Positions 69-21,028 of a DNA stretch of 24,530 nt are shown piece by piece. The stretch spans positions 1 through 24,530 of the forward strand of contig JBHHXN010000072.1 of NCBI GenBank assembly GCA_046757025.1, read 5' to 3'. The position numbers and the translations under genes were made by a program. This DNA is from a bacterium (GTDB lineage Bacteria; Zhuqueibacterota; Zhuqueibacteria; Oceanimicrobiales; Oceanimicrobiaceae). Position 1 is the stretch's first letter. Each line of letters starts with the position of its first letter. The notes below the pieces were generated by a model, which saw only the letters and a program-made list of their open reading frames with translations, made no database searches and was not told the DNA's origin.

Positions 69-1079
69 GGACGCCGTCACCGAACTTCTTGCTTCCAGCA
101 ATTTTTCAGAACAGAACCAGACCGCATAATCCAGCCAGCGGTGATCGCCCAGTGGGGTTTTGTGAGCTGAGACAAATCCCATGTGTCCACCGCTGCGGGT
201 GAGGTGCACTTGCAGGTGCGAATTTACCGGCAACCCTTTAAAAGATTTCACTGGTACGAATGGATCATCGTCGCTGGCCAGCAAAATGGTGGGCACCGTG
301 ATATTCTGCAGAAATTGTTTGGCGCTGCACCTGGTGTAATAATCTTCAGCCGACTCAAAATGGTTGAGCGGCGCGGTGTAAAATTCGTCAAACATGCGCA
401 CGGTCGTGTTCCACGGAAAACGATAAACGGGAAAATCAGGAAAATGCGCCTGGCGCTCTTTGATGGCTTCTTTTAGCAGCCGCACAAACCGGTGATCGTA
501 AATTCGATTACGTATCTTACACAACGCCACAGAACACAATGACAGATCGATGGGCGGGGTGACGGCCATGGCGCCGCTCAATTCATCCGGGTAGGGATGC
601 ATTTGCTCCCCAAGCAATTTCAGTAGGGCGTTGCCGCTGAGCGAAAATCCCACTGCCACCAGCGGCAGTCGGGGATGCAATTCGGCGAGATAATTCAATA
701 CCGCGCTGACGTCGTCGCTGCGGCCGGAATGATAGAGATTGCGGGCCAGTCCGGCGCCCGCTCCGCAGCCGCGGTGGTTCATGCGAAAAGTCAGCCAGCC
801 GCGCTCACTGAATAGTTTGGCCATGCGCATCATGTAGGGCGACTCTTCGTGACCGCCAAGCCCGTGCATAAACAGCGCGGCCCCTTTTGGTGCAGATTCC
901 CAATTACTTGCGTTTTCACAGACCGCTACTCTATCGCCTTCTGACACCGGCACCTGATGGACTCTATCCGGCTTGATTTCTTTGGGTCCCGGTAGGTAGT
1001 AACCGACAACGGTTTGCAGATGCCCCCCCGGCAGCAAGGGGTGGCGTTGAAAAGGCATGAAGCCATCTAATTGCGACAT
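57..1079 (-). CDS. YheT-like (ABHD1-3 type) alpha/beta hydrolase
   Basis: N-terminal HPLLPGGHLQT, HGLGG oxyanion region, NHRGCG, YHSGRSDD, nucleophile elbow GFSLSG, acid DDPFV and catalytic GGHMGF. Confidence 0.9.
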   Translation of the reverse strand: MSQLDGFMPFQRHPLLPGGHLQTVVGYYLPGPKEIKPDRVHQVPVSEGDRVAVCENASNWESAPKGAALFMHGLGGHEESPYMMRMAKLFSERGWLTFRMNHRGCGAGAGLARNLYHSGRSDDVSAVLNYLAELHPRLPLVAVGFSLSGNALLKLLGEQMHPYPDELSGAMAVTPPIDLSLCSVALCKIRNRIYDHRFVRLLKEAIKERQAHFPDFPVYRFPWNTTVRMFDEFYTAPLNHFESAEDYYTRCSAKQFLQNITVPTILLASDDDPFVPVKSFKGLPVNSHLQVHLTRSGGHMGFVSAHKTPLGDHRWLDYAVWFCSEKLLEARSSVTASNPP

Positions 1080-1210
1080 TTTCGATCCCGTTAATTGTTC
1101 AAATTGTTAAAGTGGGTAATTTAATATATTTTTGGAATTTTCAAAAATAAATGTAACTATTCAGTTCTGAAGGCAAAATTATTTTATGTCAAAATGATTT
1201 AAAATTCAGG

Positions 1211-1469
1211 CTAAGGCAGAATCGCTTTGAAATTGATACTACCCTAGTCAAAATTGCGCCATTGCATCGCCTTTAAGCACGCGAACCGAATTCAGCGGCA
1301 AAGAGCTTGCTCGAAAATTTTTCGTCTTTCGTTATCAATGAAATCTTGAAAGCAGCCTCCGTATGGATTATGGGAACTTTTGCCTGCCAGGAAAAGCGCC
1401 ACATTATTCGCGATGAATGGAGCAGGCCAATCCCATGATCACGTAATCAAGTAAACGAAAATCTTCATG
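1211..1469 (-). pseudogene. Decayed, internally deleted remnant resembling the long form of GxxExxY proteins
   Basis: Manual minus-strand translation across frameshifts gives HEDFRLLDYVIMGLACSIHRE*, then GRQK/VPIIHTEAAFKISLITKDEK, then FEQALCR*IRFACLKAMQWRNFD*GSINFKAILP*. These resemble the N- and C-termini of extended GxxExxY proteins as I recall them; not confirmed by search. Confidence 0.55.
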
Positions 1470-1470
1470 C

Positions 1471-1512
1471 GAGATGGCTTCATCCCGCACACACCGCGGG
1501 ACTCGCAACGAC
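1471..1512 (-). repeat. Half copy of the GTCATTGCGAG REP-like element
   Basis: Revcomp gtcgttgcgagtcccgcggtgtgtgcgggatgaagccatctc matches 15449-15490 at 36/42 positions. Confidence 0.85.
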
Positions 1513-1844
1513 AGCCCGGATTACTTTTTACGAGATACTCATAAACCATTTTACATTTAGCACGTTACTATTTGAGTTTTGATTTTTTGCTAATCATTTT
1601 GTCTAATAAAAGCTTGGCCCATTGTACAGCGTTTTGGAACGGTTCAGCCTTTCACCCTGCAATTGCGTGATCTTTTTTAAGTCGGAGAGTCTGTTGGCCA
1701 AACAAAGAAGAGCTAAACAACAAACAAGCTCCCCCTACGGGAAGACAATTCAAGGCTGTCCATGAGAGGTCTGGCTTCGCGTCCGCAAAAAGACCTTTAC
1801 GAAGGTAAGTCATTTTTATTTGATAAAAATTGCGAATTATTTTA

Positions 1845-1873
1845 TTGACTCTTAGCGAGAAAATCCTTATCAT
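1845..1873 (+). promoter_or_regulatory. Sigma70-like promoter for 1903..2268
   Basis: TTGACT (1845-1850), 17-nt spacer, TATCAT (1868-1873). An AT palindrome atttttat-ttg-ataaaaat sits just upstream at 1812-1830. Confidence 0.55.
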
Positions 1874-1902
1874 GGCGGGCGAAAGGGGTTGAGCGAAAGG
1901 CC

Positions 1903-2268
1903 ATGTATTTAAACAAAAAACCCATTTTAGAAACCGAGCTGGTGCTCATTTACATTGATGACGAGCCGGCATTTTATGCGCGTGTGGAAAAAATCACTGC
2001 GGACGTCAAACCGAAGTGGTGGCGCGTGAAATTGCTGATATTGACTTTTCCGGCCAAACTGACCACCTGGATCATCGACGACGAACAGATCCGAGGAGCG
2101 GATTTCACCATGGGGGGTACGCCGCTCCGCATCGAAAAAGTGAGCGTACCCGAAACAGGGCAACTGAGCGAGCAGGACACCGGCGAATCCCCGCAAGAAA
2201 AAAAACGCACCCCGGCGCGCGTGGTTTCCATGCCCATTAAGAATCCGGTCAAAAAAACCACTAAATGA
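1903..2268 (+). CDS. Conserved hypothetical protein (small beta-rich domain plus charged tail)
   Basis: 121 aa with a globular part (LVLIYIDDEPAFYARVEKITADVKPKWWRVKLLIL...TWII...FTMGG) that resembles hypotheticals I recall from deltaproteobacteria. A promoter lies upstream. Confidence 0.75.
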   Translation: MYLNKKPILETELVLIYIDDEPAFYARVEKITADVKPKWWRVKLLILTFPAKLTTWIIDDEQIRGADFTMGGTPLRIEKVSVPETGQLSEQDTGESPQEKKRTPARVVSMPIKNPVKKTTK

Positions 2269-2280
2269 CTTTTTTAAAAC

Positions 2281-2309
2281 TTGACTTTTTTTGAAAAAAT
2301 ATTTATATA
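2281..2309 (+). promoter_or_regulatory. Possible promoter of the act-cox operon
   Basis: TTGACT (2281-2286), 17 nt, TATATA (2304-2309). The -10 is imperfect. Confidence 0.3.
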
Positions 2310-2481
2310 CCAATCTTTTGAAAAACTAATTAAATAACCAATAATAAAACAATAAGGAAATTGCTCAAAATCTGGTTACTGCTTTCATTTTTCTCCTCGG
2401 TTTGTGTATTAGACAAACGACTTCTGCAAACGACCGCCAAAAGCAAAATCCTTTATTTCATATTGGATTCAAGCTTCATTA

Positions 2482-3132
2482 ATGTCTCAAATTTTTCATC
2501 CTAGTACGAATACCTTTTCAAAGGTGACCATCTTTGGAACGATGTTTTTTCTGGCCGCTCTGGGCTGGATCGTTCTGGCTATCGAACGCTCCTCTTATGT
2601 GACCCAAGCCAGCGTAGTTCGCGAACAACCGGTGCCGTTCAGCCACCGACACCATGTCTCGGACCTGGGCATCGACTGTCGCTACTGCCACACTTCAGTG
2701 GAAGAAAGCCCATTTGCGGGCATCCCACCCACCAAAACGTGCATGACCTGTCATTCCCAGATTCACAACACAGCCGAGATGTTGGAACCGGTGCGAGAAA
2801 GCTGGCGCACCGGTAAATCTCTGGAATGGGTCCGTGTGCACGATTTACCGGATTTTGTGTATTTCAACCACAGCATCCACCTGAAAAAAGGTGTGGGGTG
2901 TGAGACTTGTCACGGGCCTGTGGGCGATATGGCCCTGACCTGGAAACAGAATTCCTTGAACATGGAATGGTGCCTGGAGTGCCATCGGGCGCCGGAAAAA
3001 TTTGTGCGACCACGGGAGAACGTTTTTAACCTCCACTGGCAACCGCAAATCGAGCAGGAAATCCTGGGGGCGCAACTGTTAGAAAAATACCACATCAAGA
3101 GTGAAACCAATTGTTCAATTTGCCATAGATGA
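2482..3132 (+). CDS. actA: Alternative complex III pentaheme cytochrome c subunit
   Basis: N-terminal TM helix, QPVPFSHRHH and five CxxCH motifs (CRYCH, CMTCH, CETCH, CLECH, CSICH). First gene of the act cluster. Confidence 0.95.
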   Translation: MSQIFHPSTNTFSKVTIFGTMFFLAALGWIVLAIERSSYVTQASVVREQPVPFSHRHHVSDLGIDCRYCHTSVEESPFAGIPPTKTCMTCHSQIHNTAEMLEPVRESWRTGKSLEWVRVHDLPDFVYFNHSIHLKKGVGCETCHGPVGDMALTWKQNSLNMEWCLECHRAPEKFVRPRENVFNLHWQPQIEQEILGAQLLEKYHIKSETNCSICHR

Positions 3133-6100
3133 AAAAATCACACGAATTAGGAAATAACACCGATATTTCAGCCATTCGCGCTAAATTGCAAAATCTGCGA
3201 GGAAAGGCGTACTGGCGCAGCCTGGAAGAGCTGGCGGAAACGGAAGAATTTCAGCGGCTGGTAGAAAACGAGTTTCCACAAAGCCCCATGGTATGGGAAA
3301 AACCGTTCAGCCGCCGCAAATTCATGCAGCTCATGGGGGCTTCGCTGGCGCTGGCGGGTTTAACCGCGTGCACCCGGCAGCCTCTTGAAAAAATCGTTCC
3401 GTACGTGAAAGCGCCGGAAGAGATCGTTCCCGGCAAACCGCTCTTCTTTGCCTCAGCCTTCACATTGAACGGCTACGCCAGCGGTATTCTGGTGGAAAGC
3501 CACATGGGACGACCGACTAAAATCGAGGGGAATCCGCAGCACCCGGCCAGTCTGGGTGCCACCAGCGTACTGGCGCAGGCCTCGATTCTGGACCTCTACG
3601 ATCCGGACCGAGCACAAGTGGTGACCAATATCGGCAGCATCAGCACCTGGGAAAATTTTGTCACCGTGCTCAATCAGCAACTGGACAGCCAGCGACTCAC
3701 CGACGGCGCCGGCATTCGCATTTTAACCGAAACCGTAACCTCGCCGACGCTGACCGATCAAATCCAGTCTATCCTGCAAAAATTTCCCCTGGCCAAATGG
3801 CATCAATATGAGCCGTGTAATGGCGACAATCTGAAGAAAGGAGCGCAACTGGCGTTTGGTGAATTCGTGGACTGCCGCTACGATTACGAAGCTGCTGACT
3901 ATATCCTGACCCTGGATGCGGATTTTCTGGCGGCCGGTCCTGGCCAGTTAAAATATGCTCGTCAATTTACAGCCAGAAGAAAAAGCACAGAAAACCAGCC
4001 GGACATGAATCGGCTTTATGCGGTGGAGAGCACCCCTTCCCTGACCGGCGCCATGGCGGATCATCGGCTGCCGCTGCAGACGAGTGAAATCGTCGATTTA
4101 GCCATAGCTCTATCGCGTGAGCTGGAAGTCCTGGAAGCACTTGATTTACAAATTGCAGAAGGTTACTCTCCACCCGCTTCGGAAAGGTCCTGGCGCAACT
4201 GGATGAAGGCAGCCGCCAAAGACTTACGCCGCCATCCCGGAAAAAGTCTGATCGTTGTTGGCGAATCGCAGCCGCCACCGGTGCATTTGCTGGCCCATGT
4301 CCTGAATCGGGCGCTCGGCAACGTCGGCAAAACCGTGTTCTATTCCGAGCCAGTCGAATCGAATCCGACAATTCAGTTGGATTCGCTGCGGCAGCTCAAC
4401 GATGAGATGGCCAACGGCGCCGTGGAAGTGCTCCTCATTTTGGGCGGTAATCCGGTTTTGACCGCACCTGCCGATTTCAACATTACTGAGCAGATGGCGA
4501 AAGTCAAGTTCAGCGTGCATTTGAGTCAGCAGGAAGATGAGACTTCCCACTGGTGCCACTGGCACATTCCACAGACACACTACCTGGAGAACTGGAGCGA
4601 CGTCCGGGCTTTTGACGGCACGGTGACCATTCAGCAACCGTTGATTGCGCCGCTGTATGGCGGCATTTCTGAACACGAGCTGCTGGCGGTGCTCACGGGT
4701 CAGACCGGTAAATCCGCGCACGACATCGTCAAGGATACCTGGCGCGCCCGCATGGCTTTGCCCGAATTTGAAAATTTCTGGCGGACTTCACTTCACGACG
4801 GTGTGGTTGCGGGCACCGCCGTCGAGCCGAAATCCGTGCCGCTACGCATCCAAAACAAAACTCTGGAAATCGAATCGATTTCGAAAAGCATGTCCACAGA
4901 TTCAGACTTTGAAATGGTTTTCAAACCAGATCCAAACATCCACGACGGCCGATTTGCCAACAATCCCTGGCTGCAGGAATTGCCGAAACCGCTGACAAAG
5001 CTGACCTGGGACAACGCCGCTCTCATCAGTCCGGCGGACGCGGAACGCCGGCGACTGAGCAACGGCGATGTGGTGGAGCTACAAGCGGGTGAACATAAGC
5101 TGAAGGCGCCCGTGTGGATTCTGCCCGGACAAGCTGAACGATCCATCACCCTGCATTTTGGATATGGCAGAAAACGCGCCGGCATGATTGGGTCGGCCGT
5201 GGGAGTCGATGTTTTTAAGCTGCGCACCTCTTCTGCAACCTGGTTTGCCACCGGCGTGAAAATGCAAAAGACCCACGACAAAGTAAAACTCGCCAGCACC
5301 CAGATGCATCACAACATGGAAAACCGCCACCTGGTGAGAAGCGCAAATCTGCATGAATTTATTGAACAGCCAGAACTATTTCATGAGATGGGTCATGATC
5401 CCGACCCGGATTTAACCCTCTATCCGGATTACGAATACGAAGGCAACTCCTGGGGCATGGTGGTGGATTTGAATAGCTGTATCGGCTGCAACGCCTGCAC
5501 AGTCGCCTGTCAATCTGAAAACAACATTCCGGTAGTGGGGAAAGATGAAGTCCTGAGGGGACGGGAAATGCACTGGATTCGCATCGACCGCTATTTCGAA
5601 GGGGAGCTTGAAAATCCAGCGGTGCACCACCAACCGGTCATGTGCATGCACTGTGAAAACGCCCCGTGCGAGGTGGTGTGTCCGGTGGCGGCCACTGTGC
5701 ACAGCGACGAAGGTCTCAACGAAATGGTTTACAATCGGTGTGTGGGAACACGATACTGCTCCAACAATTGTCCGTACAAAGTACGGCGATTTAATTTTTT
5801 TCTTTACGCGGACCTGGAAACACCGACTCTCAAATTGCAAAGGAATCCCGATGTGACCGTTCGAACTCGCGGGATTATGGAAAAATGTACTTACTGCGTC
5901 CAAAGGATCAATTCAGCCCGCATCGAAGCGAAAAAAGAGGAACGAGATATTCGCGACGGCGAAATCATCACAGCCTGTCAACAGGTATGTCCCACAGACG
6001 CGATTGTGTTCGGAAATATCAACGACCCGGAAAGTCGTGTTGCCCAGCTCAAAGCGGATAAACGAAATTACGGCATTTTAACCGATTTGAATACCCGACC

Positions 6101-6158
6101 GAGAACCAGTTATTTAGGGAAGCTAAAAAACCCGAATCCGGAGCTCGAGGAAAGCTGA
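3129..6158 (+). CDS. actB: Alternative complex III ActB (molybdopterin oxidoreductase-like domain fused to Fe-S domain; extended Tat signal, lipobox)
   Basis: YWRSLEEL extension, SRRKFMQL Tat motif and LTAC lipobox; GRPTKIEGNP. C-terminal Fe-S motifs CIGCNACTVAC, CMHCENAPCEVVCP, CVGTRYCSNNCP and CTYC...CQQVCP. ATGA overlap with actA. Confidence 0.96.
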   Translation: MKKSHELGNNTDISAIRAKLQNLRGKAYWRSLEELAETEEFQRLVENEFPQSPMVWEKPFSRRKFMQLMGASLALAGLTACTRQPLEKIVPYVKAPEEIVPGKPLFFASAFTLNGYASGILVESHMGRPTKIEGNPQHPASLGATSVLAQASILDLYDPDRAQVVTNIGSISTWENFVTVLNQQLDSQRLTDGAGIRILTETVTSPTLTDQIQSILQKFPLAKWHQYEPCNGDNLKKGAQLAFGEFVDCRYDYEAADYILTLDADFLAAGPGQLKYARQFTARRKSTENQPDMNRLYAVESTPSLTGAMADHRLPLQTSEIVDLAIALSRELEVLEALDLQIAEGYSPPASERSWRNWMKAAAKDLRRHPGKSLIVVGESQPPPVHLLAHVLNRALGNVGKTVFYSEPVESNPTIQLDSLRQLNDEMANGAVEVLLILGGNPVLTAPADFNITEQMAKVKFSVHLSQQEDETSHWCHWHIPQTHYLENWSDVRAFDGTVTIQQPLIAPLYGGISEHELLAVLTGQTGKSAHDIVKDTWRARMALPEFENFWRTSLHDGVVAGTAVEPKSVPLRIQNKTLEIESISKSMSTDSDFEMVFKPDPNIHDGRFANNPWLQELPKPLTKLTWDNAALISPADAERRRLSNGDVVELQAGEHKLKAPVWILPGQAERSITLHFGYGRKRAGMIGSAVGVDVFKLRTSSATWFATGVKMQKTHDKVKLASTQMHHNMENRHLVRSANLHEFIEQPELFHEMGHDPDPDLTLYPDYEYEGNSWGMVVDLNSCIGCNACTVACQSENNIPVVGKDEVLRGREMHWIRIDRYFEGELENPAVHHQPVMCMHCENAPCEVVCPVAATVHSDEGLNEMVYNRCVGTRYCSNNCPYKVRRFNFFLYADLETPTLKLQRNPDVTVRTRGIMEKCTYCVQRINSARIEAKKEERDIRDGEIITACQQVCPTDAIVFGNINDPESRVAQLKADKRNYGILTDLNTRPRTSYLGKLKNPNPELEES

Positions 6159-7534
6159 TGTCAGCAGATGATTTAAAAAAGAAAAAGTCATCCGTAAAAG
6201 AAGCGCCGTTCATCGAGCCGGGACACACTTATGCTTCGATCACGGACAAGATCAGCTCCATCGTGCTCACCCGCAAAACACCGCTGGGTTGGTTTGTGGG
6301 ATTTGGTCTGGCGTTTTCCCTGCTGATGCTGCTGCTGGTGGCGGTGACTTATTTGTTCATCAAAGGCGTGGGTATTTGGGGCATCAACATTCCTGTGGGG
6401 TGGGGATTTGCCATCATCAACTTTGTCTGGTGGATCGGAATCGGTCATGCCGGCACGCTTATTTCCGCCATTCTTTTGCTTCTGCGGCAGGAGTGGCGTA
6501 CCTCCATCAACCGCTTTGCCGAAGCCATGACCCTGTTTGCCGTGGCTGCGGCCGGCATTTTTCCGCTCATCCACATGGGAAGACCGTGGCTGTTTTATTG
6601 GCTGATGCCCTACCCCAACACCATGTCGTTGTGGCCGCAATTCCGCAGTCCCCTGGTGTGGGATGTGTTCGCCGTGAGTACGTACGCCACGGTTTCGCTG
6701 CTGTTCTGGTATGTGGGGCTGGTGCCGGATTTTGCCACGTTGCGTGACCGCACAAAGAGTCGATTTTCCCAGATCGTTTACGGGGTGCTGGCCATGGGCT
6801 GGCGCGGCTCCGCCATCCACTGGTACCGCTATGAAACCGCTTATCTGCTTTTGGCTGGTCTAGCCACGCCGCTGGTGATTTCGGTACACACAGTGGTGAG
6901 TTTTGACTTTGCCATGTCCATCGTACCGGGTTGGCATGCTACAATCTTTCCGCCCTATTTTGTGGCGGGAGCGATTTATGCCGGCTTCGCCATGGTGCTG
7001 ACCCTTTCCATCCCGCTGCGAAAAATCTTTGGCCTGGAAGACTTTATCACCATGCGGCACCTGAAGAACATGGCCAAAGTGATGCTGGCCACCGGCCTCA
7101 TCGTGGGGTACGGATACATGATGGAAGCCTTCACCGCCTGGTACAGCGGCAGCGAATACGAAGAGTTCATGATCTTGAATCGCATGACCGGGCCGTATGC
7201 GGTATTTTTCTGGGCGTTGATTTTTTGCAACGTGGTGGTACCGCAATTTCTCTGGTTTGAAAGATTTCAAAACAACGTGGTCGCGCTTTTTGCCATCGCC
7301 ATGGTGGTGAACGTCGGTATGTGGCTGGAGCGGTTTATCATCGTCGTTACCAGTCTGCATCGAGATTTTTTACCGTCGTCATGGGATATGTATGCGGGTA
7401 CTTTTTGGGATTGGGCAACGTTTCTCGGCACCATCGGACTTTTCTTCGCGCTGATGTTTTTATTCCTGCGGTTGATTCCAGCCATTTCAATTTTTGAAAT
7501 GCGCACGCTGGTGACCGAAAAAGAAACAAAATAA
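6158..7534 (+). CDS. actC: Alternative complex III quinol-binding membrane subunit (NrfD/PsrC family)
   Basis: NFVWWIGIGHAGTLISAIL, WRTSINRFAEAMT, HMGRPW, FRSPLVWDVFAVSTY; polytopic. TGATG overlap with actB. Confidence 0.96.
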   Translation: MSADDLKKKKSSVKEAPFIEPGHTYASITDKISSIVLTRKTPLGWFVGFGLAFSLLMLLLVAVTYLFIKGVGIWGINIPVGWGFAIINFVWWIGIGHAGTLISAILLLLRQEWRTSINRFAEAMTLFAVAAAGIFPLIHMGRPWLFYWLMPYPNTMSLWPQFRSPLVWDVFAVSTYATVSLLFWYVGLVPDFATLRDRTKSRFSQIVYGVLAMGWRGSAIHWYRYETAYLLLAGLATPLVISVHTVVSFDFAMSIVPGWHATIFPPYFVAGAIYAGFAMVLTLSIPLRKIFGLEDFITMRHLKNMAKVMLATGLIVGYGYMMEAFTAWYSGSEYEEFMILNRMTGPYAVFFWALIFCNVVVPQFLWFERFQNNVVALFAIAMVVNVGMWLERFIIVVTSLHRDFLPSSWDMYAGTFWDWATFLGTIGLFFALMFLFLRLIPAISIFEMRTLVTEKETK

Positions 7535-7569
7535 CCAAAGCTCTAATTGAAAATTGAAATTAAAGTACC

Positions 7570-8311
7570 GCCACTGATATTCACGGATTGAACACGGATA
7601 AAATGAGTTTAGAATTTGAAGATATTACAGAAGCAATAATTGGGGCTGCCTTTGAAGTCTATAATATTCTCGGCTATGGTTTTTTAGAGAAAGTATATCA
7701 AAAAGCATTACAGGTTGAACTGTTACGCCGGGGACATTCTGCAGAACTAGAACATGCTATAAAAGTGAAGTTTAAAGGTGTCATAGTCGGTGATTATGAA
7801 GCGGATCTGTTTGTGGATGGCAAAGTATTAGTGGAAATTAAAGTTGCAAAAAAATATAATCCGAAAGATGAGCCACAGTTGCTGAATGAATTGAAAGCAA
7901 CAAAAATAAGAGTCGGGCTACTCATTAATTTCGGCAAGCAAAAACTAGAATTCAAACGATTCAGTTATGGGTAAAAATCCGTGTGTAATCTGTACTACAA
8001 GCCGACAACATGGTGTTTTTTAGCAAAGTTTTGGACGCTTCAGAACCTATTTTAGCCACGGATTTACACTGATAAAACACAGATTTTAAAATATAAAGTA
8101 TTTGAAATGAACTTTTATCTTCAAGAACCTGTTGTTGATTGATTGTGAAATTAATAAGTAAGCTCAAGTACAAAAGTTTAAATAGTGGAACGAATAATCA
8201 TTTTGTTTTCATATACTAACGGTACTTAAAGGTATTTATCCGTGTCAATCGGTGTTAATCGGTGGCTAAATTATTGGGTTGCGGCTCTACAGTGCTGAGT
8301 GCATCTGTGGC
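7570..8311. mobile_element. Nested cassette with ~10-mer tandem-repeat inverted arms (CACGGAT-type) between actC and actD
   Basis: Left arm gccactgatattcacggattgaacacggata (7570-7600). Right-arm pieces aatccgtgtgtaatctgt (7976-7993) and gtgcatctgtggc (8299-8311). Inner pair tttagccacggatttacactgataaaacacagattt (8051-8086) and tttatccgtgtcaatcggtgttaatcggtggctaaa (8235-8270). Mobility is inferred. Confidence 0.7.
7603..7974 (+). CDS. GxxExxY protein (PD-(D/E)XK nuclease-like)
   Basis: GFLEKVY matches GxxExxY; ADLFVDGKVLVEIK is a D...ExK motif; QLLNEL and GLLINFG are typical. Visibly AT-richer than the flanking act genes. ATG at 7603, alternative TTG at 7588. Confidence 0.93.
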   Translation: MSLEFEDITEAIIGAAFEVYNILGYGFLEKVYQKALQVELLRRGHSAELEHAIKVKFKGVIVGDYEADLFVDGKVLVEIKVAKKYNPKDEPQLLNELKATKIRVGLLINFGKQKLEFKRFSYG

Positions 8312-8370
8312 TGTAACACTAAAAAATGAGTTTTTTATCAACACTGATCTATTCAGATCCCAAAAATATC

Positions 8371-8910
8371 ATGAATAAAGAACGCGAAATCTACGGTTTA
8401 TTAGCGGAATTTGAAAATCCCGAACAACTAATCGAGGCGGCAACGAAGGCGCGTGAGCACGGCTTTCAAAAAATGGACGCCTATACACCGTTTCCTGTGG
8501 AAGAGCTGCCGCAAGCAGTGGGCTTCAAAAAACCGATGCTGCCGCTCATCGTGCTCATTGGCGGCATCGTCGGGGCGCTGCTGGGATTTGGCATGCAATA
8601 TTACGCTTCGGTCATTTCGTACCCACTGAATGTGGGCGGCCGACCGCTGAATAGCTGGCCGTCGTTCATTCCCATAACCTTCGAAATGACGATTTTGGTA
8701 GCGGCCTTTTCTGCGGTACTCGGCATGTTTGCTTTGAACAAGCTGCCCATGCCGTACCATCCGGTATTTAACGTACCGCGTTTCAAACTGGCGTCGCGCG
8801 ACCGCTTCTTTCTGTGTATCGAAAGCAAAGACCCGCAATTCTATTTAAAACAAACCGCGGAGTTTTTAAAATCGCTGCATGCGGTGGAGGTATTTGAGGT
8901 GGAGCCGTGA
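8371..8910 (+). CDS. actD: Alternative complex III ActD (DUF3341)
   Basis: YGLLAEF, MDAYTPFPV, YPLNVGGRPLNSWPSFIPITFE, ASRDRFFL; two TM helices. An in-frame upstream ATG exists at 8326. Confidence 0.93.
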   Translation: MNKEREIYGLLAEFENPEQLIEAATKAREHGFQKMDAYTPFPVEELPQAVGFKKPMLPLIVLIGGIVGALLGFGMQYYASVISYPLNVGGRPLNSWPSFIPITFEMTILVAAFSAVLGMFALNKLPMPYHPVFNVPRFKLASRDRFFLCIESKDPQFYLKQTAEFLKSLHAVEVFEVEP

Positions 8911-8918
8911 TTTTATTT

Positions 8919-8960
8919 GAGGATAGAAAATAGAGAATAGAGGTTTGAAAATAGAAAATA
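8919..8960 (+). repeat. Heptamer tandem array (GAAAATA-like x6), left arm
   Basis: gaggata gaaaata gagaata gaggttt gaaaata gaaaata. Confidence 0.85.
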
Positions 8961-8964
8961 AATT

Positions 8965-9218
8965 TAGCCTGAACTATTCAAAAAAATATTAACGCAGAGT
9001 TCGCCGAGGACGCTGAGTTACACAGAGAAAATCCTAAGGATTTAAGACCATGAGAGTCAGGCATTGACCTGGAAGTGTTGCATAAAGCAATCGCCTTTCT
9101 CTGCGTCCTTTGCGAACTCTGCGTTTAGAAACTTGTTTTAACGTCAGACAATTACTTAACATGTATATATTAATCGCTTTAAGGCTTTCTCAAACAGATT
9201 TTGGAATAACCCAGGTTA
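8965..9218. mobile_element. MITE-like element with imperfect ~21-bp terminal inverted repeats, containing an inner 9-mer-armed inverted repeat
   Basis: Ends: tagcctgaactattcaaaaaa (8965-8985) vs revcomp of 9198-9218, taacctgggttattccaaaat. Inner arms: aacgcagagttcgccgaggacgctgagttacacagagaaa (8991-9030) vs revcomp of 9096-9127, taaacgcagagttcgcaaaggacgcagagaaa (14-bp exact core). Confidence 0.65.
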
Positions 9219-9286
9219 GGAATTAGGATTTTAAAAATCGTTGTGATAAATAGCTTTTTATCAGATAAATCCTCGATACGCGGGAT

Positions 9287-9346
9287 TTCATGGTTCGACT
9301 CCGCTCACCATGAAGAAGTTAGCTTCACCTGGAGCAGTCGAGGGGT
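9287..9346. repeat. REP-like TTCGAC...GCTC hairpin plus degenerate inverted partner
   Basis: ttcatggt-tcgactccgctc-accatgaa (8-bp stem, 9287-9314). gagcagtcga (9332-9341) is the revcomp of tcgactccgctc with a 2-nt deletion. Confidence 0.6.
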
Positions 9347-9383
9347 GCCGACTGATTTATCTCGACTTTCCAGCCAGACTTCC

Positions 9384-9515
9384 GGGCGTTTGTATAAAGC
9401 CGCGTTCATGAACAAAATCAACGAAGCCCTGGGAGAAGCCTGGCAGCACATCGGCGCCATGCTGAACAAAATGATCCAACGAGCAGATAGTTTTTGTCAA
9501 ACTAATATTAAATAG
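9384..9515 (+). pseudogene. Four-helix-bundle protein (TIGR02436 / 23S rRNA IVP-like) C-terminal remnant with internal deletion
   Basis: GRLYKAAFMNKINEALGEA|WQHIGAMLNKMIQRADSFC follows the family pattern RRY.AAF..KL..A.GEA...I..ML.KMI. The N-terminus and the ETQxWL segment are missing. Confidence 0.7.
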
Positions 9516-9525
9516 GGAAAATTAA

Positions 9526-10194
9526 GTGGCATTCATAAAAATCAATTTTCGATTTTCCATCTTCCATCATCTATCTTCTATCTTCAATCTTTTTATTTAT
9601 TTGAAAAATATTCGAAGATGGACAAACTATAAAATTATTTTATTAGCAGTCACAATAATCAACACAACCGCCTGCCGGCAGGACATGCACGATCAGCCCA
9701 AATTACAGCCGTTGGAAGCCAGTGATTTTTTCAAGGACGGCCGGGCTTCCCGGTCGCTGATCGAGGGCACCGTGGCACGCGGCCATTTAAACAATGACCC
9801 ACATTTATATCAGGGGAGAGTTGACGGAGAGCTGGTCTGGACGTTTCCTTTCCCGATCACCAAAGAAGTTTTGCGGCGCGGCGAAGAACGCTACAACATT
9901 TTCTGTTCGCCCTGCCACGATCAGCTTGGATATGGACGGGGAATGATTGTCCAGCGCGGTTTTCGACAGCCGCCCTCGTTTCACATCGACCGGCTGCGCA
10001 ATGCGCCAGCCGGACATCTTTTTGACGTCATCTCCAACGGTCTGGGCGCCATGTTTGATTATGCTGAACGCATTCCGGTCCACGACCGCTGGGCCATCGT
10101 GGCGTATATTCGCGTGCTGCAGTTGAGTCAAAACGCCACCATGGACGATGTGCCAGAAGAATTGCGACAACCGTTAATGGAAAACAATAAATGA
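9526..10194 (+). CDS. actE: Alternative complex III monoheme cytochrome c lipoprotein
   Basis: AC-RQDMHDQPK lipoprotein N-terminus, GTVARG, a single CSPCH, DRWAIVAYIRVLQLSQ. Start is uncertain: GTG 9526 (agggaa upstream) or TTG 9601. Confidence 0.92.
   Translation: MAFIKINFRFSIFHHLSSIFNLFIYLKNIRRWTNYKIILLAVTIINTTACRQDMHDQPKLQPLEASDFFKDGRASRSLIEGTVARGHLNNDPHLYQGRVDGELVWTFPFPITKEVLRRGEERYNIFCSPCHDQLGYGRGMIVQRGFRQPPSFHIDRLRNAPAGHLFDVISNGLGAMFDYAERIPVHDRWAIVAYIRVLQLSQNATMDDVPEELRQPLMENNK
9544..9592 (-). repeat. Heptamer tandem array (x7), right arm, inverted relative to 8919-8960
   Basis: aattttc gattttc catcttc catcatc tatcttc tatcttc aatcttt; revcomp units are gaaaatt, gaaaatc, gaagata and similar. 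Confidence 0.85.
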
Positions 10195-11363
10195 ACGATT
10201 TTGAGTCCACCAAACCGGTATTGAGTCAAGTCCAGCTCCGCGTCTTTATTTTCGGACTGGCGGGAATGGCCATTTGTGCTGCGGGCGCCTTTTACAATGC
10301 CGAGCAGTTTTTTCAATCCTACCTGCTGGGCTACGTCTTCTGGATCGGCATCGCACTCGGCAGCCTGGCTCTGCTGGCTTTACACCACCTTGTGGGCGGC
10401 GGCTGGGGATTCTCCATTCAGCGCGTTTTAGAAGCTGGCACACGTACTCTGCCCTTATTTGTGCTGCTATTTTTGCCGTTGCTTTTCAATATGCCGAAAC
10501 TCTACATTTGGGCGCAGCCGGAAAAGGTTGCCATGGACACCGTGCTGCAGCACAAAAGCGTTTATCTCAATGTACCCTTTTTCGGTGTACGGACCGGCAT
10601 TTATTTTGTCATCTGGGGAATTTTAATCTATTTATTGAACAAGTGGTCGCTGGCACTGGATCGAGCAAAGAACGCGCCTCTGCTCAGCCGCATTCAAAAA
10701 ATCTGCGGACCCGCCATCCTGCTGTACGTGCTCACGGTGACCTTTTCATCCATCGACTGGGTGATGTCGCTGGATCCGCACTGGTTTTCCACGATTTTCG
10801 GATTCGTGTTCGTCATCGGTCAGGCGCTGCTCACCCTGGCTTTTGCCATCATCTGGACGGGCAAACTCGCTAAATTCAGTCCTCTGGCGGAAGTCATTCA
10901 AAAGAAACATTTTCATGATCTGGGCAATTTGCTGCTGGCGTTCGTCATGCTCTGGGCCTACATCTCGCTGTCACAATTTCTCATCATCTGGTCTGGTAAT
11001 TTGCCGGAAGAGATCCCCTGGTATCTGCATCGTTTGCACGGCGGCTGGCAGTGGCTGGCTTTTGCGGTGGTGATTTTTCATTTCACTCTGCCGTTTGTGG
11101 TGCTGCTATCCCGGCGCAGTAAACGCCGGGTGGAAATTCTCACCCGGGTAGCATACCTGATTATCATCATGCGCCTGTTGGATTTGTTCTGGTTCGTGGC
11201 GCCTAATTTTCATGCAGAAAATATCCGCGTACATTGGCTGAACATTCTGGTTCCGCTGGCCATGGGCGGCGTATGGTTGGCCTTTTTTATCCAGCAACTC
11301 AAAACAAGGGCGCTGTTGCCCCTGCACGATCCCCGAATGAAAGAGGCATTTCATCATGAGTGA
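10191..11363 (+). CDS. actF: Alternative complex III membrane subunit ActF
   Basis: Polytopic; HHLVGGGWG, YLNVPFF, DWVMSLDPHWFSTIFG, HFHDLGNLL, SQFLIIWSGNLPEE. ATGA overlap with actE. Confidence 0.93.
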   Translation: MNDFESTKPVLSQVQLRVFIFGLAGMAICAAGAFYNAEQFFQSYLLGYVFWIGIALGSLALLALHHLVGGGWGFSIQRVLEAGTRTLPLFVLLFLPLLFNMPKLYIWAQPEKVAMDTVLQHKSVYLNVPFFGVRTGIYFVIWGILIYLLNKWSLALDRAKNAPLLSRIQKICGPAILLYVLTVTFSSIDWVMSLDPHWFSTIFGFVFVIGQALLTLAFAIIWTGKLAKFSPLAEVIQKKHFHDLGNLLLAFVMLWAYISLSQFLIIWSGNLPEEIPWYLHRLHGGWQWLAFAVVIFHFTLPFVVLLSRRSKRRVEILTRVAYLIIIMRLLDLFWFVAPNFHAENIRVHWLNILVPLAMGGVWLAFFIQQLKTRALLPLHDPRMKEAFHHE

Positions 11364-11787
11364 GAAGAAAAGAGAAGCCGTGAAAAAAAATCATTCTAAC
11401 TACGAACGCAGCGATGCAAAAATCCGTGCCATCACTTGGTCGGGAATAAGCTTGCTCGCGCTGATCTTTCTCATTTTTGTTGTCATATTTGGGGTGTTTC
11501 ATTTACTCAAAGAGAAGAGACAAAAATCCTTGCCCGTTCCATCGCCGCTGGCCGGTGCAAAGCAGCAGAAAGTCATCGAGTCACAGTTGTTGGTGCAACC
11601 GGCCATGGAGCTGGTAAAATTTCGGGCGCTGCAAGACTCCTTGAAATCCCATTATGGTTGGGTGGTGAAAGAAGCCGGCGTGGTGCGCATCCCTGTCGAT
11701 CGTGCGATGGAGCTCATGCTGCAGCGCGGTTTACCCGTGCGGCAAAATTTGTCAGTACAACCTCATGGGGAAGAAAGAATAAAATGA
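11356..11787 (+). CDS. actG: ActG-like single-TM subunit
   Basis: YERSD, one TM helix, YGWV...GVVRIPVDRAMELMLQRGLP. Position after actF. Confidence 0.75.
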   Translation: MSEKKREAVKKNHSNYERSDAKIRAITWSGISLLALIFLIFVVIFGVFHLLKEKRQKSLPVPSPLAGAKQQKVIESQLLVQPAMELVKFRALQDSLKSHYGWVVKEAGVVRIPVDRAMELMLQRGLPVRQNLSVQPHGEERIK

Positions 11788-11912
11788 GTTTGTCTGTCCA
11801 GTTAACTCGGAAACCGGTAGTTCTGAGAAGTTCTGTGACAAGGCGCAGAATGACAATAAAATTAAAATTTACCGGATAAAATGGAGAATCCTAAACAGTG
11901 AGGATTTATGCC

Positions 11913-12776
11913 ATGAAAAAAAAGAATTGTTTTCACCATTTTTTAAACGCATACGCGATTTTACTGCTGGTCGCGGTAGCCTGCCTGTGGACCCCGGCGG
12001 CTTCTCTTCTGGCGCAGGAAATCAAAGCCAGTCAGCAAATCGATGTGTTGGAAGAAGTGGGAATCGACCAAAAACTCAACGAGCAAATTCCTTTGAATTG
12101 GTTTTTCACCGACGCCGGCGGGCGTTCCGTGCAATTGCAGGAATATTTCAATGAAAAACCCGTGATCCTGGCTTTTGTCTATTATGAATGCCCCATGCTT
12201 TGCACCATGGTGCTCAACGGCTTGCTGCAAAGCATCAACACATTGAATTTTAACGTGGGCAGTCATTATGAGATCGTTACCGTCAGTTTCGATCCAGGAG
12301 AAACGCCCAAATTGGCGGCAGGGAAAAAAACCACTTATGTGAACAAATATGGCCGACGGGGCGCTGCAGATGGTTGGCATTTTCTCACCGGCGATGAAGC
12401 CGCCATCAAGGCGTTGACTCAGGCTGCGGGTTTCAAATACAAATACGATCCCGAAACCGACCAGTATATTCATGCCAGCGGGGTGATGGTGCTGACGCCG
12501 GAGGGCCGGCTTTCGCGTTATTTTTACGGTGTGGAATACTCCGCCCGCGATCTCAAGCTGGCGCTCATGGAAGCTTCAAAAAACAAAATCGGGTCGGCTG
12601 TCGATCAAATTTTGCTGTACTGCTATCACTACGATCCCACAACAGGAAAATACGGAGTGGCCATCATGCGCATCATTCGCGTGCTGGGCAGCGCCACCGT
12701 GATCATCATAGTAGCATTTATGCTCATCATGTTTCGCCGCGACAGGCGGGCAAAACGAGCCGCCATAACACATTAA
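11913..12776 (+). CDS. SCO1/SenC family copper chaperone
   Basis: Signal peptide, VGIDQKL, YYECPMLC (CxxxC), YIHASG, YCYHYDP and a C-terminal TM helix. ATG 11913 follows gagg; alternative GTG at 11898. Confidence 0.92.
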   Translation: MKKKNCFHHFLNAYAILLLVAVACLWTPAASLLAQEIKASQQIDVLEEVGIDQKLNEQIPLNWFFTDAGGRSVQLQEYFNEKPVILAFVYYECPMLCTMVLNGLLQSINTLNFNVGSHYEIVTVSFDPGETPKLAAGKKTTYVNKYGRRGAADGWHFLTGDEAAIKALTQAAGFKYKYDPETDQYIHASGVMVLTPEGRLSRYFYGVEYSARDLKLALMEASKNKIGSAVDQILLYCYHYDPTTGKYGVAIMRIIRVLGSATVIIIVAFMLIMFRRDRRAKRAAITH

Positions 12777-12792
12777 ATTTTGAGATTTCATC

Positions 12793-13737
12793 ATGGACAA
12801 AGGATTTAAATTATTACCGGAGCAAGCTTCCACCCTGGCAGGAAAAATCGATCTTCTCTATTTTTTTCTGGTGCTGGTGAGCCTCTTTTTTGCGGCGCTG
12901 ATATTTTTTCTCATCTATATTTTCGTGGTAAAATATCGCCGGCGTTCGGAAGACGAAGTCCCCAAAGAATTACCCGGACTGTTGAAACTGGAGCTGCTCT
13001 GGACCATCATCCCGCTGATTCTGGTGCTAGTGGTATTTGCCTGGGGCGCCTCGTTGTATTTTACCAGCTACTCGCCACCCGAAGATGTGCTGGAAATTTT
13101 TGTGGTGGGCAAACAATGGATGTGGTATGTGCAGCATCCCACTGGCCAGCGCGAAATTAATGAATTGCACGTTCCCATAGACCGAGCCGTGAAGTTGACC
13201 ATGGCCACCGAAGACGTCATCCACAGCTTTTACATTCCGGCATTTAGAATCAAAAAAGACGTGGTGCCGGGAAGATACACCACCATGTGGTTCGAAGCTA
13301 CCAAACCCGGCGAGTATCATTTGTTTTGTGCTGAATATTGCGGCACCAAACACTCTGAAATGAGAGGTCGGGTGGTGGTGATGGAACCCAATGATTACCA
13401 GAACTGGCTGAGCGGTGGGGCTGGCACGGAACCGATGAAAGTTTCGGGTGAGAAAAAATTTCAACAACTGGCCTGCCACACCTGTCACAAAGAGGTGCCC
13501 GGCGCCCGCGGCCCCTCGCTGGTCGGCATATTCGGACAGCCCGTGCTGCTGGAAAGCGGGCAAACAATGCTGGTTAACGAAGATTACATTCGAGAGTCCA
13601 TTCTCACCCCGAATGCCAAGATCAAAGCGGGCTTCAAACCGGTCATGCCGACTTTCAAAGGCCAGATCGACGAAATCAGCTTGCTGCAGATTACGGCTTA
13701 TATTAAATCTTTATCAAAAGATAGGAGCAATGATTGA
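12793..13737 (+). CDS. coxB: Cytochrome c oxidase subunit II with fused cytochrome c (caa3 type)
   Basis: Two TM helices, [20 protein letters not shown], CuA motif [12 protein letters not shown] and C-terminal CHTCH...MP. Confidence 0.96.
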
Positions 13738-15410
13738 TGAGCACCGCCGTTTTTAAACATCGCAGTTCCCAGTTGTCTGATGATCAAAATGGCTCTGAAA
13801 GAAATTACCTGAACGCCGGTTTCAGCGCCAAATCGTGGCTGCTAACCGTGGATCACAAGCGCATCGCCATTTTATATCTCATCGCCATCACGCTGTTTTT
13901 CTTTTTAGGCGGGATGTTTGCAGTGCTGATTCGGCTAGAGCTGCTCACACCGCAGGGCGATCTCATGCAGTCGGAAACCTACAACAAAATGTTTACCATG
14001 CACGGCATCATCATGATCTTCTTTTTTCTGATCCCGTCGATTCCGGCTGTGCTCGGAAACTTTCTCATTCCACTCATGATCGGCGCCCGCGACCTGGCGT
14101 TTCCGCGCATCAATCTGTTGAGCTGGTACGTTTACGTGGTTGGCGGCCTGTTTACGTTTGCCGCCATCGTCTTCGGTGGGGTGGATACCGGCTGGACGTT
14201 TTATACGCCCTACAGCAGCACGTACGCCAACACCAATGTGATTCTGGCGGCCATCGGTGTGTTTGTCACCGGTTTTTCGTCGATTTTAACTGGATTGAAT
14301 TTTCTGGTTACCATCCACAAAATGCGTGCTCCCGGGCTGACCTGGTTTCGACTGCCGCTGTTTGTGTGGGCGCATTATGCCACCAGCATCATTCAAATTT
14401 TGGGCACCCCGGTCGTGGCCATCGCCATCGTGCTGGTGGGCCTGGAAAGGCTGTTTCAGATCGGCATCTTCGATCCCAACCTGGGCGGCGATCCGCTGTT
14501 GTTTCAGCACCTGTTCTGGTTCTACTCACACCCGGCCGTGTATATCATGATTTTGCCGGGCATGGGCGTGATCAGCGAGATCATCACCTGCTTTGCAAAA
14601 AAGAAAATTTTTGGTTATCAATTCATCGCCTTCTCCAGCATCGCCATCGCGGTTATGGGCTTTTTAGTCTGGGGACACCACATGTTCACCAGCGGCCAAT
14701 CCATGTATGCCAGTCTGGTGTTTTCGATTTTGACGTTTCTGGTTGCAATTCCTTCGGCCATCAAAGTCTTCAACTGGACCGCCACGCTTTACAAAGGCTC
14801 GGTTTCTTATGAAGCGCCCATGCTGTACGCCCTCGGTTTTATCGGCTTGTTCACCGTGGGCGGGTTGACCGGCATTTTCCTCGGCACCCTGGCGGTGGAT
14901 GTACACGTACACGACACCTACTTTGTGGTGGCGCATTTTCATTACATCATGGTGGGCGGCGCCATCATGGCTTACTTGAGCGGCATTCATTTCTGGTGGC
15001 CGAAAATGACCGGCCGCCTCTATCCGGAAGGCTGGGCGCGTTTTTCCGCGCTGGTCATTTTCATCGGCTTCCACCTGACCTTTTTCCCGCAGTTCATCGT
15101 GGGCTACCTCGGCATGCCGCGGCGCTATCATGCTTATCCAGAAGAATTTCAAATCCTGAATGTGCTCTCCTCGGCTGGCGCCACCATACTCGGGGTGGGT
15201 TATTTGATCCCGTTGATATATTTTATCTGGTCCCTGCGCTACGGCAAAAAAGCCAGCGCCAATCCCTGGAACGCCAAAGGTCTGGAATGGGAACGGGTGC
15301 CTTCCCCGCCTACAACGCATAATTACGAAAACATACCGGTGGTGACGGAAGAAGCTTATGAATATACTGCACAGCAGTCGAAGGAAGTTTTACAAAATGA
15401 AAAAATCTAA
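13737..15410 (+). CDS. coxA: Cytochrome c oxidase subunit I (A2 type)
   Basis: [24 protein letters not shown] (YS motif of A2 enzymes), [26 protein letters not shown] aggag at 13723-13727. Confidence 0.97.
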
Positions 15411-15448
15411 TTTAGCCATACAATTCTTAATTGACATCGCAGCCATTA

Positions 15449-15555
15449 GTCATTGCGAGTCCCGCGTTTTTTGCGAGACGAAGCCATCTCTTAACTTTCA
15501 TAAAATCAGGGGATTGCCTCGTCATCCCGCTTTTGGCGGGATTCCTCGCAATGAC
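15449..15555. repeat. Complete REP/RPE-like palindromic element GTCATTGCGAG...CTCGCAATGAC
   Basis: Perfect 11-bp terminal inverted repeat. Internal gaagccatctc / ggggattgcctc pair and side hairpins tcccgc..gcgaga and atcccgc-ttttg-gcgggat. Confidence 0.9.
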
Positions 15556-15625
15556 AATTTAATTGGTAAACTAATTTCCAAATCAAGACACTAGTTTATA
15601 AAACTGAAATTAACGGAGAGTAAAC

Positions 15626-16270
15626 TTGTCTGAAAAACCCGGCGCATTAGCCCATCATTTTGAAGATATGGAGCAGCAATTCGAAGCCTCCACACTGGGT
15701 ATGTGGGCGTTTTTGGTAACGGAAATTTTGTTTTTCGGCGGCTTGTTTGCGGGTTATCTGGTGTACCGCACCAAGTATCCACAGGCGTTTGATCTGGGCA
15801 GCCACGAGCTGGACATCGTTCTGGGCGCCATCAACACCGCCGTGCTGATTCTCAGCAGCCTGACCATGGCGTTAGCCGTGCACTGGGGGCAAAAAGGCCA
15901 GAGCAAAAGAATCGTGCTGTTTCTCATTTTCACCATGATTTTAGGCGCGACCTTTCTCGGCATCAAGGCCGTGGAATATGCGCACAAAGCCCACGAACAT
16001 CTGGTACCCAGCACCGGCTTCCTTTTCGAGGGAGCGCACGCGGATCAGGTGCGCATTTTCTTCTCCTTCTATTTTGCCATGACCGGCATGCACGCCTTTC
16101 ACATGATCATCGGTCTGGGGCTGCTGGCTTACCTGGTAATTCAAGCATGGAAAGGCAAGTACACCGCCAAATACAACACCCCCATCGACTTAATTGGACT
16201 TTACTGGCATTTTGTGGATATTGTCTGGATTTTTCTGTTTCCACTGCTTTATTTAATAGGAAGAAATTAA
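15626..16270 (+). CDS. coxC: Cytochrome c oxidase subunit III
   Basis: GMWAFLVTEILFFGGLF, NTAVLILSS, TGMHAFH, GLYWHFVDIVWIFLFPLLY. TTG start after ggagag. Confidence 0.95.
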   Translation: MSEKPGALAHHFEDMEQQFEASTLGMWAFLVTEILFFGGLFAGYLVYRTKYPQAFDLGSHELDIVLGAINTAVLILSSLTMALAVHWGQKGQSKRIVLFLIFTMILGATFLGIKAVEYAHKAHEHLVPSTGFLFEGAHADQVRIFFSFYFAMTGMHAFHMIIGLGLLAYLVIQAWKGKYTAKYNTPIDLIGLYWHFVDIVWIFLFPLLYLIGRN

Positions 16271-16272
16271 AA

Positions 16273-20843: not shown

Positions 20844-20993
20844 GAAAGAACCTCGCTAATTTATTTTTTAAACGAAAATTGTTTAATCGGAATCATTCAG
20901 ATCCCCAAAAACAAAAAGCACAAATTCTGGTTTCATTAATTTATATGAGAACGGACAATTTTTTGACTCATTCACTGCAAAAACTTTAAATTC

Positions 20994-21028
20994 ATTTTGT
21001 CCTTTGTCCTTTGTCCCTTGTCCTTTGT
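20994..21028. repeat. Heptamer tandem array (CCTTTGT x4-5)
   Basis: attttgt cctttgt cctttgt cccttgt cctttgt. Confidence 0.85.

Follow-up and report, generated by a model that had tools for sequence, protein, structure and literature searches.

The 24,530-nucleotide stretch of DNA analysed here (the window; contig C72, GenBank JBHHXN010000072.1) belongs to a bacterium of the family Oceanimicrobiaceae (assembly GCA_046757025.1, host genome G000, 5.96 Mb, 94.8% complete). It carries small cassettes in which one gene, for a GxxExxY or a four-helix-bundle protein, stands between inverted tandem-repeat arms at a gene junction. We regard it as an evenly balanced proposition that these are selfish mini-cassettes, each encoding a protein with predicted binding to the arm type of its own cassette, and that their main route of spread is recombination into related junctions of other genomes. 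Five inverted arm pairs were found in the window, one around an intact GxxExxY gene, two around dead cargo genes and two without a gene. The cassette sites are the gap before position 1903 and the actC|actD and actD|actE junctions of an operon for alternative complex III (act) and a heme-copper oxidase, which spans 2482-16575 in the list of open reading frames (ORFs). The identity of ActD was confirmed by a profile search, and the other gene names in the operon are presumptive. All cassettes of the window are located between protein-coding genes and none in an rRNA helix. The arms and cargo genes are as follows:

1172-1200, plus strand: left arm of the long-GxxExxY cassette, two CAAAAT units about 15-16 bp apart
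1217-1493, minus strand: dead long GxxExxY gene (about 270-aa type) in pieces 1493-1407 and 1342-1217, middle deleted, several stops
1577-1603, minus strand: decayed right arm of the long-GxxExxY cassette, one good unit and one decayed, behind a REP-like insert
7570-7601, plus strand: left arm of the intact GxxExxY gene, three CACGGAT units of about 10-11 bp, 35 bp past the actC stop
7603-7974, plus strand: intact GxxExxY gene, 123 aa, predicted PD-(D/E)XK fold
7975-7993, minus strand: shortened right arm of the intact GxxExxY gene, two units
8048-8273, unstranded: gene-less CACGGAT pair, arms 8048-8090 and 8232-8273, AT-rich spacer
8915-8962, plus strand: left heptamer arm (GATAGAA type), directly 3' of the actD stop
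8989-9127, unstranded: gene-less ACGCAGAG pair, nested inside the four-helix-bundle cassette
9387-9515, plus strand: C-terminal remnant of a four-helix-bundle gene (TIGR02436/PF05635), 5' half lost, 27-aa internal deletion
9538-9593, minus strand: right-hand heptamer arm, close upstream of the probable actE start

An earlier note, made from the sequence alone, had described these inverted pairs, and all five were present and exceeded shuffled controls. Among 1000 shuffles of the partner arm, the observed score was equalled once for the 1172 pair, seven times for the 7570 pair, never for the 8051 and 8991 pairs, and once for the 8919 pair, counts that are optimistic because the test windows were picked around the arms. 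The 8991-9017/9099-9125 pair is 89% complementary over 27 nt. The gene-less CACGGAT pair, also reported in that note, is 85% complementary over 26 nt (8048-8073/8248-8273), and the RNA hairpin predicted for 8048-8273 has a stability of -54 kcal/mol, a figure without a shuffle control. The description of all arms as short tandem arrays was borne out in part. The heptamers, GAAAATA in the note, form 5.4 copies at 8923-8960 and 5.3 copies at 9555-9591 around the four-helix-bundle remnant, and these arrays and one 10-mer arm were the only ones detected by Tandem Repeats Finder (TRF), but the remaining arms consist of 2-3 degenerate units. The first arm, read before as an approximately 12-mer array, turned out to be the two spaced CAAAAT units listed above. 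Around the intact gene the left CACGGAT arm stood as described, but the right arm is interrupted by a small dispersed repeat at 7988-8031. An assembly artefact was considered and rejected, since contigs of three DNA runs cover 500-8079 or most of the region with few differences. A role of the arms as intrinsic terminators was also rejected, the arms being 80-600 bp apart, mid-operon and tied to the cargo clade. A GGTTGCGGC...-type motif at 8272-8300 recurs beside several arm types in the genome. At 20996-21028 the window holds a solo TTTGTCC heptamer array, a unit that also flanks bundle genes at C166 and C298.

Arms of this kind were strongly enriched around both gene families. The flank-tested genes were the best-scoring subset of the listed GxxExxY and bundle genes together with the close-homologue loci. 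Flanks of 150 bp were required, so that 12 of 96 bundle and 9 of 135 GxxExxY genes were dropped, leaving 84 and 126; the close-homologue set was reduced from 80 loci to 66 by removing 11 partial matches and 3 loci with short flanks. An inverted arm score above 26 was reached by 59 of the 84 bundle and 85 of the 126 GxxExxY genes, and by 6 of 506 control ORFs with intergenic flanks, so that the control genes ruled out a chance origin of the arm pairs. The inverted score lay above the 99th percentile of shuffles for 66/84 bundle and 85/126 GxxExxY genes, and for 54 of the 66 close GxxExxY homologues. The detected arrays of bundle genes had a period of 7 in 37 of 44 cases upstream and 44 of 53 downstream (the rest mostly 8), and those of GxxExxY genes a period of 9-11 in 49 of 51 and 39 of 43 cases, respectively.

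The coupling between arm and cargo was tested by comparing the upstream arm of one element with the downstream arm of another, a score of at least 24 counting as a match; simple flank homology was therefore avoided. For GxxExxY, 79% of 221 close protein pairs cross-matched versus 1% of 4588 distant ones, and for the bundle family 66% of 56 close pairs versus 0% of 3037 distant ones; between the two families the figure was 0.5%. Mantel values for arm similarity against protein distance were -0.45 and -0.09, which are descriptive only because related elements are not independent. With arm motifs derived from these data themselves, 38 of the 126 GxxExxY loci had an equal motif on both sides, 32 had one on one side, 56 had none and none had two different motifs, while a GxxExxY motif was carried by 0/84 bundle loci. 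Arm type thus follows cargo family and clade, as the earlier note had supposed. Its idea of one cargo per arm type holds at the level of subtypes, but the cargo comprises two protein families and not four: GxxExxY with three subtypes and the bundle with one, every subtype having its matching arm. Likewise, the ACGCAGAG pair is empty in the window, but its arm type is not without cargo; it belongs to its own GxxExxY subtype and surrounds a GxxExxY pseudogene at G000:C30.

The CACGGAT arm is shared by GxxExxY homologues of 64-88% identity in records titled KSB1, Calditrichota, Planctomycetota, Nitrospirota, Verrucomicrobia, Spirochaetales and Cytophagia, those of KSB1 and Calditrichota being the closest. 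Phages as main carriers are unsupported, since the viral contigs searched for GxxExxY yielded just 2 loci. Both GxxExxY and four-helix-bundle genes were found in 21/21 genomes searched of the host's family. Over the cut-off, the host genome yielded 6 GxxExxY and 10 four-helix-bundle matches, most of them with visible inverted arrays of differing units. The GxxExxY genes at L070, L071, L074, L084 and L102 stand inside nested CACGGAT arms, and an extra inverted motif located between these arms, GG(C/T)TCTATGT(C/T)G..., is possibly a third insertion sequence (IS) end. Directly repeated arm or hairpin blocks flank the GxxExxY genes at L082, L088, L091, L113 and L123, the pattern that single-crossover integration into a hairpin would give.

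To our knowledge, neither GxxExxY nor four-helix-bundle genes have an assigned function. The product of 7603-7974 scored 128 bits with TIGR04256 (cut-off 35) and 126.7 with PF13366 (cut-off 22), in agreement with the earlier assignment of an intact GxxExxY gene. In an alignment of 57 sequences E29, D68, E78, K80 and Q92 are invariant, and the model built from that alignment had a pLDDT of 96 (40 for the single-sequence model). It resembles Cas4, Hjc resolvases, exonucleases and restriction enzymes, with Cas4 SSO0001 found by Foldseek at E 5.7e-5 and VIA matches of 8.2/3.4/98, 8.2/2.3/85 and 8.0/4.2/101 (Z/rmsd/aligned). Judging by the modelled fold and the core residues, GxxExxY belongs to the PD-(D/E)XK nuclease superfamily and is a predicted nuclease, with a fold that points to no particular substrate. 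The remnant between 1172 and 1603, which the earlier note had likened to a long GxxExxY gene, matched a 272-aa long GxxExxY at both termini (1493-1407 at the N-terminus, E 2e-5; 1342-1217 at the C-terminus, E 3e-5; tblastn), and dead paralogues occur at C13, C23, C123 and C195. The segment 9387-9494 aligned to residues 49-111 of the intact L062 bundle protein with a 27-aa gap (E 2e-13), and the L062 protein itself scored 92.7 with PF05635 (cut-off 33.8). The bundle family forms a homopentameric ring according to the available part of PMC4990558, which cites Lin 2006. The cassettes' own cargo was PF13366 or PF05635, with no DDE, HUH, Ser or Tyr transposase as cargo. Median dN/dS was 0.16 (15 pairs) and 0.09 (52 pairs) for the two cargo families, and the cargo is, by these sequence comparisons, under purifying selection. 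Many copies are pseudogenes, including two of the three in the window.

Both occupied act junctions were empty in many relatives, which confirmed the expected presence/absence polymorphism. The actC|actD junction measured at most 105 bp in 11 of 18 relatives (the G016 value was excluded as an artefact), and in 1 of the 18 it held a different GxxExxY gene, of 33% identity and with other arms. Among the 15 relatives with a measurable actD|actE junction, 6 were essentially empty, 3 had the same bundle subtype and the rest had other inserts; the bundle gene was visible at contig ends in two further genomes. Within one genus, G020 has the bundle gene at actD|actE and G010 has another arm type with another small ORF. 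The GATAGAA-type arm was also found at the actD|actE junction of relatives, and an arm directly after the actD stop was present in G037 and absent in G058. All 9 genome matches with at least 67% identity to the actD|actE bundle protein lay directly upstream of actE; among 19 metagenome loci with at least 62% identity, 10 had no act gene in view, three of these being full-length with the same arm type. In the window, actE probably starts at the TTG near 9601, because of the lipoprotein signal. Arms also invade host coding ends (L028, L338, L339), as in G010, where the arm provides the actD stop codon, and in G114 and G115, where the right arm lies in frame, inside the ActE signal peptide or immediately ahead of it. 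The three tests that the earlier note had proposed were favourable to it, because arms were enriched, arm type tracked cargo and the junctions were polymorphic.

One allele swap was observed at a fixed junction. Loci L347 and L352 are 99.3% identical in actD and 97.9% in actE, and only 75.7% in the bundle gene; the replaced tract, about 600 bp long, begins with the first left-arm unit and stops where the actE signal peptide ends. The L347 bundle allele is 92% identical to that of L349/L350, whose actE is only 84% identical, and each of the L347 and L352 alleles is present in at least two records. This is the trace expected from homing with co-conversion, which general recombination also could leave.

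From these data we infer a mechanism with steps of arm binding, cutting, homing and looping out of mRNA. The GxxExxY protein would read 9-11-bp units along one face of duplex DNA, and the pentameric bundle protein would read 7-nt units as single strand or RNA. A nick or break made by GxxExxY at arm cruciforms, or the arm-bound bundle protein, would then promote copying of the cassette into an arm-bearing or empty junction via host recombination. In the operon mRNA the arm stem would loop out the cassette, just as an rRNA intervening sequence (IVS) is looped out by its stem, and insertion would therefore carry a low cost. Copies would decay by internal deletion into empty hairpins, to be invaded and transported by other small elements.

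Such small elements were found in and around the cassettes:

1153-1164, plus strand: IS66-type terminal repeat GTAACTATTCAG, partner end unrecognisable in the window
1471-1512, unstranded: half of a REP-like palindrome, in or at the long-GxxExxY remnant, more than 35 genome matches including window 15449-15490
7988-8031, unstranded: small dispersed repeat, 84% matches at C102 and C274; a similar segment adjoins GxxExxY in L075
9285-9345, unstranded: REP-like insert in the dead four-helix-bundle gene, about 50 genome matches

REP-like repeats have entered each of the two dead cassettes; the genome has two abundant families of REP-like palindromes, with a window copy at 15449-15553 between coxA and coxC. 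The earlier note had seen no transposase in the window, and none was recognised in the ORF list, of which 8 distinct ORFs were profile-scanned, but the IS66-type end at 1153-1164 is present. The GTAACTATTCAG repeat has 66 copies in the genome. Within 3 kb of each other, ends of the GTAACTRTTCAG (GTAAC) type pair inward 14 times and outward never, and among 15 GTAAC-end pairs there were 5 perfect and 3 one-mismatch 8-bp target duplications. The segment 1633-1770 is a decayed copy of an approximately 125-bp GTAAC-ended family of MITEs (miniature inverted-repeat transposable elements), 74-83% identical to copies at C136, C10, C65, C20 and C6. The unit at G000:C51:10051-11747 has IS66-type ends and a perfect 8-bp duplication, and these ends enclose heptamer arms, an unrelated ORF of about 280 codons and a four-helix-bundle gene. 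The palindrome after that ORF is presumably attC-like, and the composite unit may have captured an integron cassette.

These elements bear on the strongest rival explanation, that the cassettes are passive passengers moved only in trans, by IS-ended MITEs, general recombination or transformation, with arms that are hairpin relics and cargo unrelated to movement. GTAAC ends with an 8-bp duplication do enclose the bundle cassette at C51 (8/8) and a long-GxxExxY cassette at C123 (7/8), and an IS66 transposase with GTAAC ends is present at L157 in a genome of the same family. Both GTAAC ends were seen at 1/30 IS66 loci of relatives, and no IS66 transposase was found in the host genome itself at its 94.8% completeness. 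Gene-less pairs are polarised, with 18 inward and 0 outward for ACGCAGAG and 11 and 0 for CACGGAT; the CACCAAG and CACGAAT motifs had no genome-wide enrichment, and CACTGAA formed 6 inward and 4 outward pairs. Among 12 units bounded by CTCAAGTTTCGCA, 8 hold a ACGCAGAG hairpin, 2 overlap CACGGAT hairpins and 1 has no hairpin. Nonetheless, GTAAC ends within 260 bp on both sides occurred at only 1/84 bundle and 0/126 GxxExxY genes; hitchhiking inside IS-ended units is therefore real but is not the general route. Passive carriage also leaves the clade-specific match of both arms and the purifying selection unexplained, and we consider it unlikely as the whole account. At the arm ends themselves, the target duplication amounts at most to a TA-like match of 2-3 bp, which may belong to the inverted repeat or to a shared MITE flank.

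Several observations weigh against self-driven spread. Arm similarity was likewise raised in direct orientation, for 24/84 bundle and 38/126 GxxExxY genes. By inspection, 15 of the 18 ACGCAGAG pairs share their flanks and represent one MITE of about 430 bp with CTCAAGTTTCGCA ends, a group that does not include the window's own pair. Since most empty forms sit in IS-ended MITEs, their copy number is no evidence of autonomous movement; the full, decayed and empty forms of the earlier note's mobile element were all seen, but most of the empty ones in the genome are MITE passengers. Cargo paralogues within the host genome are diverged (35-44%), so there has been no recent burst of cassettes. The divergence of the actD|actE bundle protein tracks that of ActE (rho 0.61), which fits long vertical residence with losses; because the bundle broadly follows ActE, much of its history at this junction is vertical. 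The L347/L352 swap may be ordinary homologous recombination or metagenome chimerism. No precise filled/empty allele pair was found among 337 cargo matches, in a screen where only loci with 600-bp flanks at least 90% alike were usable and which yielded, besides the L347/L352 swap, a single 166-bp difference in length. In four DNA runs from one study no precise excision joint appeared; the read joints across 7602-7976 contain other letters in between and are most likely derived from different loci or organisms, and a 164-bp contig in X4 has 8 differences over the ACGCAGAG pair, as an allele or a paralogue would. Finally, we know of no nuclease or recombinase site in four-helix-bundle proteins.

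A less probable alternative, in our estimate an improbable one, is that the cassettes are domesticated post-transcriptional regulators whose proteins bind arms in mRNA (TRAP/Hfq-like for the bundle), while the stem serves operons such as act as an element for RNase III processing or for stoichiometry. It would account for the position of the cassettes precisely between the genes of operons, with the same orientation as these in the act cases, for the retention of one bundle clade at actD|actE in two families, and for arm duplexes with predicted stabilities of -22 to -43 kcal/mol in three pairs (-13 kcal/mol in the decayed first pair). RNase III cuts the Coxiella IVS stem, as stated in the available part of PMC4990558. 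However, the act junctions are empty or hold unrelated inserts in many relatives, even inside one genus, many copies are pseudogenes, and the actD|actE bundle clade was also found at the non-act sites L354, L355 and L357. RNA-mediated retro-mobility, in which the bundle protein, as an Avd relative, would package the stem-looped cassette RNA for a trans-acting reverse transcriptase (RT), is very improbable: the bundle matches bAvd weakly (E 1e-6, under the cut-off) and the genome's one RT adjoins an Avd-like ORF in an arrangement like that of a diversity-generating retroelement (DGR), but this DGR-like RT was the only one found, GxxExxY cassettes are not covered, and no target duplication beyond the TA-like dinucleotide was seen at arm ends. 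The RT locus, G000:C20:1-1700 (L427), has an Avd-like ORF, a 354-aa RT and a template-repeat-like stretch, and is a probable DGR.

The closest printed precedent found for the cassettes is the ORF-bearing 23S rRNA IVS of Coxiella burnetii and Leptospira (S23p/PF05635/TIGR02436), described in the available part of PMC4990558 as a four-helix-bundle ORF between complementary termini, with tandem heptamers 5' of the ORF, sporadic, horizontally acquired and with decaying ORFs. The window arms at 8915-8962/9538-9593 are of the same kind, complementary heptamer termini around an S23p-type ORF. Unlike the IVS, the window cassettes lie between protein-coding genes, and a second, nuclease-fold cargo family occurs here on 9-11-bp (and about 15-bp) arms, together with clade-specific arms, an allele swap and MITE carriage. 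Intergenic heptamer arrays of Xanthomonas and Nostoc are often arranged as inverted, convergent pairs, of which two Xanthomonas genomes have 70 and 75; the available part of PMC4692102 (Rehm et al. 2015) treats them as G-quadruplex repeats, calls their origin unstudied and makes no mention of a cargo gene. They resemble the arms in being intergenic and inverted, and as far as that text goes a cargo gene is found only here. Cyanobacterial STRR are further intergenic heptamer repeats. REPIN-RAYT systems are small single-gene elements with inverted repeats that co-vary with the protein and many gene-less hairpins; their RAYT protein is a transposase of the HUH class, and their REPs are palindromes that have a GTAG/CGTC foot. 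The cassettes share this ecology of gene plus hairpins; in contrast, they have tandem-array arms, a PD-(D/E)XK or four-helix-bundle protein and no HUH (Y1) cargo. They belong to neither rRNA IVS nor REPIN-RAYT. With IS66-family MITEs they share outer GTAACTRTTCAG ends with an 8-bp duplication that match the IS66 transposase locus L157, but here these ends are an outer, occasional layer, absent from most cassettes. Homing endonuclease genes and the Rpn/YhgA PD-(D/E)XK recombination-promoting nucleases spread via recombination at a fixed site with flank co-conversion. They are alike in their small nuclease-fold gene and the fixed-site spread predicted here, and differ in that the cassettes have no intron or intein and have arms on both sides, that bundle cassettes lack a nuclease and that GxxExxY cleavage is a prediction. 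No publication describing repeat-armed cassettes outside rRNA was found in a search that covered few subscription papers. A preprint on tandem inverted repeats and four-helix-bundle proteins (TIR/TarP), not found and unverified, reportedly exists and may cover the bundle half. In the parts available, 10.1101/2021.01.26.428298 merely records a GxxExxY gene beside an RT, and PMC10907252 deals with MITEs and is not relevant to the cassettes. The L347/L352-type allele swap and the carriage by IS ends appear to be additions to the known architecture.

Elsewhere in the window, a partial ORF6N-domain gene (16646-16969, minus strand) immediately follows coxD and has a 15-bp duplication in front. The minus strand at 19881-23296 encodes a coiled-coil ORF, a 188-aa ORF and a response regulator whose C-terminus we take to be SARP/BTAD-like.

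The earlier observation was partly confirmed and its interpretation, as an unconventional class of mobile elements with arms as cis sites, partly supported. A broader proposal, which we offer tentatively and regard as possible rather than probable, is that transposase-free homing cassettes exist in many phyla, in which tiny PD-(D/E)XK or pentameric bundle proteins would read clade-specific arms and drive their own copying; the rRNA intervening sequences would be a special case, and intergenic heptamer and 9-11-mer repeats decayed footprints. The clade-matched pairs of protein and arm allow a direct test of recognition, own versus foreign arm, and the exchange of alleles at one fixed junction offers a starting point for a homing assay. 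If the cargo drives movement, it would represent a new and very small DNA-insertion chemistry and a natural family of repeat-reading proteins with a ready-made specificity code, and cargo-driven homing, if true, would be categorically new.

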